Source: Podarcis liolepis
Lineage: Eukaryota
Length of the DNA stretch: 64,000 nucleotides
Assembly: GCA_965112155.1 (NCBI GenBank)
Contig: OZ218104.1
Strand: one strand, 5' to 3'
The notes beneath the pieces were generated by a model. The model saw nothing but the letters and a program-made list of their open reading frames with translations, was not told the DNA's origin and did not search any database. Of this stretch, positions 14,091 to 35,504 are shown piece after piece (within the stretch, counting starts at the first letter, position 1; every line of letters begins with the position of its first letter). Position numbers and translations under genes: made by a program.

Positions 14091-14766
14091 ATTTCAGTGG
14101 GCCTAATGTTGAATACAAGCATCAAATGAAAAATAAAAGAGCATTTTTTAAAAAATAGGATGGGCAATTCAAAGTCATCATACTGTTTCCCACTCTCACG
14201 GGTCCACAGTTCCATGCCCCTAATGTTCTTCCAAGAGATCTTTAGAAAAGAGAGAAATTATTTCTTATCAAAGTGATAATGCCACCAAAGATTCAACACA
14301 AGCTTTGTTTGTTGCATAAATAACACCAGGAAAATACACACCTTGATATTCAGTTTAGGGGGTCCGAATAACAAATATGATAATCATTTGGTACACATTA
14401 GACGGAAGAAACAATCTACTTTTTGCCTCCATAAGAATTTGAGCTTGCACTCTGTGTGTCCTGAAACCAATCCAACCATACACAGATTTCTGTGAAGAAC
14501 AGAATGTGTGAAACATATGCTGACTTTGAATCCAATGGTTGCTGATCTTGGAAAGTTCATTTTTTTTAAAAAATGGATCTACTTCTATTTCAAGTTTAAC
14601 ATGTCCAAAGAGAAAGTAAAGAACACATGTAATAGAATGAACTGGAAGATATAAAATAGAAATAATTCAAAATCCTACCCCAAAATGAACATAATCTACA
14701 TTAAGTTCACTCAGAACACATGGAAACTACTTTCTGGTGTAGTTGAGAGATTATTTAAACTAATTC

Positions 14767-14908
14767 CAGTGCTCCCCCCAAAAAAATGTTTAGGGGTACT
14801 CTCATTGTGCTACTCATATTGAAATACTGCCCCTCAATGATGCCAAACTTAGATTCACAAAATGTTTAGGGGTATGTGTACCCCTGGGTACCCCCAGAAA
14901 AAGCATCA
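14767..14908. mobile_element. hAT MITE with CAGTGCT-type termini (short form)
   Basis: Starts cagtgct and ends agaaaaagcatca; 8-bp TSD ACTAATTC at 14759-14766 and 14909-14916. Confidence 0.8.
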
Positions 14909-14987
14909 ACTAATTCCATGAACTTTTGTTCATTCCAAGCACTGAATTGTTGGCAGTGACAGAGGATGGGGACAGAAAATAAAACAT

Positions 14988-32470: not shown

Positions 32471-33994
32471 CTGTTGGATGCCTTATTAAAATTTCCTACA
32501 TGTGAGTTATTATATTATCAATCTTCAGAGTTCAGTTCCCACCCTTTACCTGTAAAAGTGAAATTTGACTATGTGGGTGGATGCATCTAGTACACACGCA
32601 TGTTAATTAGGGATGGGTGAATCAGTCAATTTCTGTCTCTCTCATTTTCTCATTTTTGCAAGCTTAAGTTTAGTTTTCCACATCTCCACATCTGTTTGCA
32701 ATTAAAAAATATATATTCTGGTGAAAATGTATCAGTATTTTAATGTGAATTTCTACTAAGGTGTGTGTGTGTGTGAGAGAGAGAGAGAGACAGAGGGATG
32801 CATAGAAAATAAATGCACCACATTTAATGTTATTATACACCAACTTTCCTCCAAGGAGGTCAATGGGACATGCATTCTTTATTCTATTTATATCCCACCC
32901 TTCCTCCAATTAACTTGATTTAGTGTACACGATTCCCCCTGTTTTACCCTCACAAGAAACCTTTGAGGTAGGTTAGGTTGAGGGTGGGAGAGAGAGATGG
33001 AGACAAAGAGAAAGAAAGATTGCCAAAGGTCATACAATGTGTCTAATCACTTGAGTGGAAATATTAAACTGCTTTCATAGGATGCTACCTTATACTGAAT
33101 CAGGACATCACTCCATCTAGCTCAAAATTGTCTGCCACAGGGGTAGCCAATATGGTGTCACCAGATGATGTTGGACAACTACCCCAAACATCCAAACATC
33201 CAAAAGCATTGGCCATTATGGCTGTGTCTAATGGGAGTTGCCTGAGTCCAACAGCATATGGAGAACACGAAGCAGTCTTCCCCTGGTTTACACTGACTGG
33301 CAATGATTCTCCAGGGTTTCAGGCAGGAATCTTTTCCACTTCTACTTGGAGATGACAGAGACTGAATCTGAAACCTTCTGCATGCAAAACATGTCTTCTG
33401 TCCAAAGTCCCTTCCGAGTCCTATTCCAACACTCTAAACATTGTACCACACTGGCTCTGCTGGACAATGCATAATAGTGTAGAGTGTGAGGCATGGTAAC
33501 CGATTCTTGGCATGAACAGTGAAGTGTCGCAAGCACACAATTGTTTTCATCTTCAAAATGTAGATCAAGTTTGTACTGTGGTTGAAAGGTTTTAGGGACA
33601 TTACAGGCCTTAGTGTGAATGTGGATCTGATTCGCAGTCATGTACCCATTCGGGGTGGTGTGTTTTTTCTTGTGGTATCCTTATGTGAACTCAGTTCATT
33701 TAAATCCATGGCTCATAAAATGCAAATAAGCTCAGCCCACTCTTGCATTTTGCAAAAGTTACTTAATTGACTTTGATTCTCCAGGCCACCGTTGCAAGAA
33801 CTCCTTGCATAATGGATTTCACTATTTGCAGTTCTGCTACTGTTAATCATTCCCCACCATCACCAAGTATCCATTTGCATGCCCTCAAGATATTGCAATT
33901 AGTTTGCCATGTGGTATCATTGTTCTTGTCTTCCTACCCACTGGGCAGCTTGTGTTCCTGACCATCCCATCCATTTTAAAATCACACCTGCAAG

Positions 33995-34533
33995 CAGTGT
34001 CTTTTTTCTAGAAAAAAGATGCTGTTCCTCACCATGAAGTATTCTTCTCGGTTGCCTGGTTGAGGCTGCTGCTGGATGGGCCATACTGTGGGCTGGGCTC
34101 AGGGTGGGGCAATTGCCTGCAGAGCACCCAAAGCTGGGCTCACTGCTGGTGGAGGATATGGCCTTCTGCCTCTGTGGCATCCACAAGACCTTTGAGAAAG
34201 CTGGAGTCCTCTTGGTGCTGCCCAGCCCGGCTGCCGCTGCTGCTACTGCCACAAATCTGACCCACCTGGGAACCAATGAGCAGCTTGCACAGGCCTTGGA
34301 GCTGGCTGAGTGGTGGCAGCAGGTGAAGTGGCAGCCTGGCAGCTTCCTGCAGCTGTGCCACCACAGGACAAGGATAAGGAGGAAGTGCTGCCACCAAGAC
34401 TGGCAGTGCCATGGGGTCCACCACTGTTGGCATGAGAAAAAAGGTGCACCCACATGCTTGCTTTGGAAGTCAAGTCAAGATTTTTTTTGGGGGGGGGAGT
34501 GAGTACCAGTGAGTACAACCAGAAAAAGCACTT
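33995..34533 (+). mobile_element. hAT-type non-autonomous element carrying GC-rich, coding-like cargo
   Basis: Termini cagtgtcttttttctag / ccagaaaaagcactt; perfect 8-bp TSD CCTGCAAG at 33987-33994 and 34534-34541; same terminal type as 14767-14908. Confidence 0.8.
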
Positions 34534-35504
34534 CCTGCAAGCAATAAAATACTAAAGAGCATAAGAAAACAGAGGTGGCTTAGTCCCCCCCCCCCAATAC
34601 TTAAGGGGAGTAAACAAAGAAAAAGCTGTAACGGTGGAAAATACTAATTTTAAAAGGGGCCTGCTGCTGAAGAGAGATTTTAGGAATGGATTTCAGTCTA
34701 ACATAAATGGTATTATTTTTATTACCAGCAGTTAATAGAAAATTGTGGCACTGCTGTGGCAATGATATCTTACACTGCATGGCAAATTGTTTGTGTGACC
34801 ATGTGTGTCTCTTTGTGTATGACTTTTACCACAAAAAGCTGCCCAATTAGTATAATTAAGCACGACAACCTTCCCCTCTCCCACGGACCATCATGGTGGT
34901 AGACAGGTTTAGATTATTGTTAATGGCTACTGTCATCATCTCAATTAAACAGAATTCAAGTGAATACACATTGTAGCAACATAACAGTCCACACATTGAA
35001 ATGGGTTGCACAAGTATAATGGCCTGGTTCAATAAGCTGCTGCTTCTTGTGTTATATTTTAATGACTGAAGAAATTTGTACAACTCAATATTGTGAACAC
35101 TAACATGAAACCAGCTGGACTCAGCTGTGAGAAAGAGAACAAGCTTGATTCTTGCTAAAATCAATAATCGAATACAAGCTTGATTATTGCCAAAACGATC
35201 GTGTTCCCTAGTAATGAGAATTTAAGGATACTGGTGACAGTGTTGCCACTGGCTCAGACAGCACCTTAACATGTTGCCCTATAACTTTTCAGATAGTTTC
35301 AATATAGCTGAGATGAATAAATGGAAAAAAGGAGGTCAGGGGGGAATTGAGTGGGTGGTTGATCTGCAACCACATTAATATATACTAAAGTTTCCTGTTA
35401 GTCTCAGAGAAAAGGGGCATAGTTGTTCATCAACCAACATTTGTTCCCCTTCTATTTCTCTCCTAAGTTCCTTTCCATGTCAACACTCAGCTAACACAAA
35501 ACCT

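Follow-up and report, generated by a model that had tools for sequence, protein, structure and literature searches.

A non-autonomous hAT family with a captured and amplified piece of NUDT19 in the lizard Podarcis liolepis

Within the stretch of Podarcis liolepis DNA analysed here (64,000 nucleotides; hereafter the window) lies a copy of a non-autonomous hAT element that carries a broken piece of exon 1 of the host gene NUDT19 and probably the beginning of the following intron. In the reading we favour, to which we assign a probability of roughly 0.9, this host DNA was captured in a single event that likely took place at the DNA level, was then likely moved in trans to at least 19 sites, and has since decayed to a state that is likely non-functional. 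The original prediction, that an element of this type had captured a GC-rich host exon and moved it, is supported by an intact NUDT19 donor and by dispersed, TIR-bounded copies. The part that did not hold is that of a clean exon, since the cargo consists of exon and intron-like DNA with deletions.

Structure and classification of the element

The features of the window that are needed below are listed with their coordinates and, where one applies, their strand.

33987-33994, no strand: left 8-bp target-site duplication (TSD) CCTGCAAG, identical to 34534-34541
33995-34043, plus strand: left arm, with the TIR (CAGTG..., YARNG type) and a subterminal GGTGCC/GGTACTCACCATGAAG-type block common to empty elements of ~135 bp
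34044-34364, plus strand: captured NUDT19 exon-1 piece, donor codons ~66-182, Nudix box included
34365-34467, plus strand: intron-1-like piece, from alignment to the donor and matches of sister copies
34468-34533, plus strand: right arm (AAGATTT and a G-run, GAGTAC repeats, TIR), common to DDX21-type and other cargo types
34534-34541, no strand: right 8-bp TSD CCTGCAAG, exact copy of the left one
34158-34502, plus strand: 114-aa open frame, likely incidental, with an ATG from CpG decay of a donor GTG
14759-14916, no strand: separate 142-bp hAT-type MITE (14767-14908) and its TSDs, exact ACTAATTC

Between its TSDs the element measures 539 bp (33995-34533) and has the termini CAGTGTCTTTTT on the left and ...AAAAAGCACTT on the right, with one mismatch, at the last base, which confirms the unit, perfect TSD and ends originally described. 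Its cargo (34044-34467) has a GC content of 59% and only 3 CpGs. The plus-strand frame that had been placed at 34104-34502 is open and in reality longer, reaching from stop to stop over 34038-34502 (154 aa), and an antisense frame of 185 aa (33917-34474) is open as well, as had been claimed. Around the window no host gene was identified, and three window ORFs gave no Pfam match. The 142-bp element has an exact 8-bp TSD of its own, as had been noted; its likeness to the 539-bp element is limited to the termini, the global alignment being weak, and it gave no BLAST match to the empty form of the family. It was therefore rejected as the empty parent, their kinship being by termini only.

Several properties place the family among the hAT elements. 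The 8-bp TSD is exact in the window and has 0-1 mismatch in 6 of 19 copies, and the family TIRs start with CAGTG, short TIRs beginning with YARNG being a hAT criterion (PMC3014272). Among 30 of the 62 loci with a PF05699 hAT domain, taken with 1.5-kb flanks, no autonomous hAT with the same ends was found, and one of these loci holds just a separate MITE insertion. T occupies position 2 in 13 of 20 family TSDs, and the T2/A7 pattern is one that we take to be of the Ac type. Membership of the Buster/Charlie hATs, whose TSD consensus is nnnTAnnn (PMC3517528), was rejected, a central TA being present in 0 of 20 hand-listed family TSDs.

The donor gene and the make-up of the cargo

The cargo is homologous to host DNA, is no transposase and lacks a TSD of its own, so that none of the findings named beforehand as speaking against a captured exon was obtained. 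The one intact donor exon that the original prediction had called for was located at G000:C7:31,754,760-31,755,476 (L009), on the minus strand of the contig that also holds the window and 17.7 Mb away from it, G000 being the window's own genome. No TIRs or arms surround the match, the reading frame continues on both sides, and the CpG island has been kept (GC 77%, 48 CpG in 353 bp, CpG o/e 0.9-1.1); host DNA between TIRs, together with an intact parent devoid of arms, is what characterizes Pack-TIR and Pack-hAT elements. The exon, of 239 aa, is 98% identical to the acyl-CoA diphosphatase NUDT19 of Podarcis muralis and 90% to that of Lacerta agilis, and the donor is named NUDT19 because of the match to the Podarcis muralis protein. 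Exons 2 and 3 sit 1.9 and 4.0 kb downstream of exon 1, and spliced RNA reads connect exon 1 to exon 2. Among 13 tblastn matches to the exon protein, L009 is the only full one. Judged by these sequence comparisons, the donor of the cargo is a single intact CpG-island gene, NUDT19. For the donor exon, Pfam gave a sub-threshold NUDIX match and a PDB search no match; the window frame had no NUDIX match in Pfam. The peptide that had been reverted by hand from the window copy proved partly wrong, the donor reading ..VAFRLCAIREAFEEAGVL.., which is the Nudix box. A NUDT19-like record of Lacerta agilis (P0002) has changes in the Nudix region and an unrelated C-terminus after exon 1; it may be a mis-annotation or a duplicate, and is slightly weaker as a reference for Lacerta.

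The exon piece at 34044-34364 aligns with L009 (BLAST q58-378; tblastn E 4e-18, 52%), and the CpG-corrected family majority is identical to the donor at 303 of 322 sites. A frameshifting deletion of 19 bp, which falls between 34116 and 34117 in the window copy, recurs in all 15 copies that span it, and about 177 bp belonging to the end of the exon are skipped at the exon/intron junction, likewise in 15 of 15 copies. The shared 19-bp deletion argues for one capture followed by amplification. Towards the right, 34428-34467 corresponds in alignment to the opening ~70 bases of the donor's intron 1, and in four of six segments tested, sister copies match donor 2049-2093 at 77-84% (best E 6.6e-8), a match of only 38-47 bp whose motif recurs in similar form (~45 bp) further into the donor intron. 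Short as it is, this match, with the lack of any exon-2 sequence, poly(A) tail or inner TSD, speaks against a retrocopy. The ~63 bp in between (34365-34427) begin like intron and do not align to today's donor. They likely represent an older state of NUDT19 intron 1, a second small donor being possible; a search with the 121-bp 3' piece returned itself and two copies only, and no second donor. At the left junction, CTTCT is common to the donor and to the NUDT19-type and DDX21-type elements (see below) and is absent from empty elements.

Copies of the family and age of the capture

A search of the window's own genome (1.57 Gb) with the window element gave 36 matches, the short ones among them being empty elements of ~110-145 bp that bear the same arms. 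The NUDT19 interior is present at at least 19 loci on 12 contigs, plus one 41-bp fragment. This count was pooled from four overlapping searches (with the element, the donor DNA, the donor protein and a second copy), of which the search by second copy added no further locus with the interior; as each search used a single sequence, all copy numbers are minimum values. Chimeric structure, junctions and deletions are common across the 19 loci, as in multicopy Pack-TIRs, where one chimeric structure recurs with distinct TSDs. Both ends and a TSD pair (0-1 mismatch) are kept in 6 of the 19 copies, and all TSDs are different; the other 13, without a recognisable pair, have been truncated, have decayed or contain later insertions. 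Two apparent TSDs were left uncounted, at L005 (decayed left end) and at L008 (in a GT repeat). Dispersed copies within the same TIRs and with different 8-bp TSDs, the second check proposed beforehand, were thus found, and they make the window element more than a product of chance. Near-full copies (n=14) are 65-78% identical to each other and 71-80% to the donor, with a mean non-CpG divergence from the family majority of 13% (n=18 copies), and by this measure the spread of the NUDT19 type appears as an old, star-like burst. Separately, three tandem segments that are 98% identical and ~31-36 kb apart (L116-L118, G000:C17:30.25-30.32 Mb) each end in the right arm of the NUDT19-carrying family.

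Eight residues of the protein distinguish Podarcis and Lacerta from six further squamates. At six of these residues the family shows the lacertid state and at two the older outgroup state, one of the latter depending on a CpG-correction rule that over-called at other sites; two more distant organisms are the same as G000 at the two older-state sites. From these six lacertid and two older states, the capture likely occurred within the lacertid line and predates the divergence of Podarcis from Lacerta. The insertion in the window is found at the same locus in two other organisms, about 1% apart, and a contig of one of them spans 33819-35320 with 17 differences.

Other cargos in the same arms

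The arms also enclose other host DNA. The DDX21 type comprises a TSD-bounded element of 701 bp (L070:1443-2143, minus strand) and two more copies (L071, L072), and its cargo is the CpG-island 5' UTR and start codon of a DEAD-box gene. The donor is L121:4550-5215 (G000:C5:32.277-32.278 Mb), where the exons that follow match nucleolar RNA helicase 2 (DDX21); the gene may also be DDX50. The bases that this type shares with the NUDT19 type at the left junction hint that cargos may have been swapped. In the contig-3 type, elements of 1303 bp (L075:1155-2457) and 1014 bp (L080:772-1785, minus strand), both with TSDs, and two partial copies hold ~1 kb of a CpG island from L122:4207-5238 (G000:C3:58.512-58.513 Mb). 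This cargo is flanked by two complete mini-elements in direct orientation with one TSD, which gives it the look of a composite transposon. A Hairy-Orange (HEY-like) exon sits ~13 kb from the contig-3 island.

A chimera type of ~14 copies (L123, L124, L100, L175 and others) joins an island of contig 18 to the 5' UTR of STARD13, with donors at L133 (C18:8.4597 Mb) and L135 (C4:79.2146 Mb). The contig-18 island adjoins a TNF-family exon. A fifth cargo type in the same arms (L136, C3:65.6577 Mb, and 12 other matches) is GC-rich and CpG-poor, and no CpG-rich donor was found among its 13 matches. Wherever the donor was located, it has kept its CpGs, while those of the copy have decayed. The right-arm pattern gave 21 matches, of which 3 are of the NUDT19 type, 5 of the chimera type and 2 of the fifth type, with 11 unassigned. 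It is probable, at a confidence clearly below that of the NUDT19 capture itself, that one lacertid hAT family gathered CpG-island 5' ends in series, as Pack-MULEs do, from no fewer than five loci (NUDT19, DDX21/50, STARD13 and the islands on contigs 3 and 18), joined and swapped its cargos and amplified each, which would make lizards the vertebrate model of how cut-and-paste transposons capture gene fragments.

Mode of capture and fate of the window copy

The family has the arms of an empty element of ~135 bp and an interior that matches the one intact CpG-island gene NUDT19. Host DNA was presumably placed between the arms through a template switch in the course of gap repair or replication, as suggested by the inclusion of intron-like DNA and by the few bases shared at the left junction; template switching is also what the FoSTeST model proposes for multicopy Pack-TIRs (PMC8277862). 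The shared deletions followed, then amplification with new TSDs, in which the spread likely depended on a transposase supplied in trans. CpG decay came afterwards, and the same arms repeated the capture with other gene starts. A different route, in which the DNA was acquired by end-bypass or composite transposition from a family member adjoining NUDT19 exon 1 and not by distant template switching, is unlikely, though it deserves some weight: a related MITE lies ~150 bp into donor intron 1 (L009 minus-oriented 2181-2310, 2050-2620), and the two mini-elements around the contig-3 cargo would suit it. However, the intron MITE belongs to a different subfamily, its interior after the arm being different, the NUDT19 cargo has arms on both sides and an internal junction in mid-exon, and the other four donors showed no such MITE remnant nearby. 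Far less probable than this is an origin of the NUDT19 piece as an RNA copy (a processed pseudogene or pre-mRNA fragment) that entered an existing MITE and was then amplified. An exon-only reading suits most of the cargo and the intron match is short, but the piece after the exon does match intron 1, the hallmarks of an RNA copy named above are lacking, and other cargos contain sequence that precedes start codons, as well as entire stretches of CpG island.

After a capture by template switching, which we prefer, the cargo lost the features of its island. Of 43 donor CpGs aligned with the window copy, only 3 are kept, 33 have become TG/CA, 3 TA and 4 other, and the CpG decay that had been suspected is therefore real. 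Over the 19 copies, 85 of 565 donor CpG sites are kept, against 386 changed to TG/CA, 23 to TA and 71 to other dinucleotides; decay to TG/CA/TA thus affects 409 of 565 sites, compared with 80 of 473 for GpC transitions. This decay points to likely methylation of the cargo once it had left its island. Changes outside CpGs are spread evenly over codon positions (0.128/0.099/0.123). The window copy is without the first 65 and last ~200 NUDT19 residues and is frameshifted, and the catalytic REAFEE has become HKTFEK. With its fold incomplete and its Nudix box changed, it is predicted not to be a functional Nudix hydrolase.

Another role for the window copy, either as a source of the 114-aa peptide from the CpG-born ATG or of small RNAs acting on NUDT19, is very improbable. 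It would be favoured by the frame, which follows that of NUDT19 for its first ~70 codons, is the only one among 14 copies to be unbroken over NUDT19 codons 98-181, and remains open in two other organisms too, where the indels listed inside it comprise a loss of 6 bp and a 5/5 pair whose members compensate each other. In G000, as read relative to the two other organisms and the family, a 5-bp loss, an A-to-G change and a 5-bp gain within 25 bp (34450-34475) jointly preserve the open frame; these changes possibly represent one repair event. An AATAAA at 34543, just past the element, also counts in favour of such a role. Yet one clean frame in 14 compares with 1.5 expected from the disruption rate, and because this is what chance predicts, the open frame is likely incidental. 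The dN/dS of the window copy (0.66) is no lower than that of its sisters (family range 0.36-0.76, transition bias uncorrected), and values below 1, found in all copies, are what transition bias and the donor branch would produce. Loss of the catalytic residues also speaks against such a role, and at 71-80% identity to the donor the copies are likely too dissimilar for small-RNA targeting today. In two RNA runs from a different species, covered to 12% and 6%, no read fell on the cargo (34138-34500), a weak argument given that the flanks were also silent, and one of them gave 21 reads of donor NUDT19; a search of sequencing runs listed no matching run recorded as RNA. The copy in the window is, then, likely a dead, non-functional passenger of the hAT family.

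Comparison with known systems

The case is of moderate interest, because its donor can be named and the family is probably a serial capturer, the window copy itself being likely junk. Such capture is common in plants, where Pack-MULEs form multi-gene chimeras, and has seldom been reported as repeated copies in vertebrates. Here a single family offers named donors, shared breakpoints, a chimera and, for each cargo, ~3 to 19 copies, everything having been taken from gene starts that lie in CpG islands. Its replicated junctions are material with which models of capture (gap repair, fork switching, composite moves) can be tested, as can a bias towards open, GC-rich DNA in a vertebrate, and captured copies of this kind can be mis-annotated as paralogues. 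Our literature search found no report of this hAT family or of NUDT19 capture; a library name in Repbase or Dfam is possible.

In lizards, the hATs of Anolis carolinensis form orphan non-autonomous families, among which hobo_AC captures extraneous DNA (Novick et al., 2011, PMC3014272). The present family resembles them in its 8-bp TSD, YARNG termini and orphan non-autonomous state; it differs in that none of the Anolis TIRs listed there reads CAGTGCYTTTTT, and the filler described consists of other transposons, the term 'host gene' being absent from the text of that article (PMC3014272). Bat Helitrons, as described in PMC4778049, are likewise DNA transposons of amniotes that multiply captured gene starts, but theirs is a rolling-circle mechanism with neither TIRs nor 8-bp TSDs. 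With plant Pack-MULEs and Pack-TYPE elements, which include the Pack-hATs of maize (Gisby and Catoni, 2022, PMC8903248), the family shares non-autonomous TIR structure, serial capture of gene fragments, multiple copies and GC-rich cargo (PMC8903248; PMC8277862). Unlike these, it resides in a vertebrate host, is old and decayed (~13% non-CpG divergence) and has no active element.

The closest parallels come from a survey of 100 genomes, which describes gene capture by TIR transposons in animals as mostly single-copy and reports four multicopy Pack-TIR cases (1.4%), of which Xenopus accounts for three and alligator for one; its supplement gives 0 Pack-TIRs for the lizard assembly anoCar2 (Tan et al., 2021, PMC8277862). 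One of these cases, Pack-hAT-N8_XT of Xenopus tropicalis, carries 291 bp of the CAPSL 5' UTR and, as presented there, has in common with the NUDT19 type its non-autonomous hAT arms, a GC-rich host 5' fragment, a distant donor without TIRs and several copies whose TSDs are distinct (PMC8277862). In contrast to its three copies and UTR cargo (PMC8277862), the lizard elements number at least 19 and carry a coding exon with a catalytic motif; here, five or more donor loci have been located for one set of arms, and one of its cargos is a chimera of two donors. The multicopy Pack-hAT is therefore a kind of element already known from Xenopus, to which this lizard family adds a member with a named donor, NUDT19.
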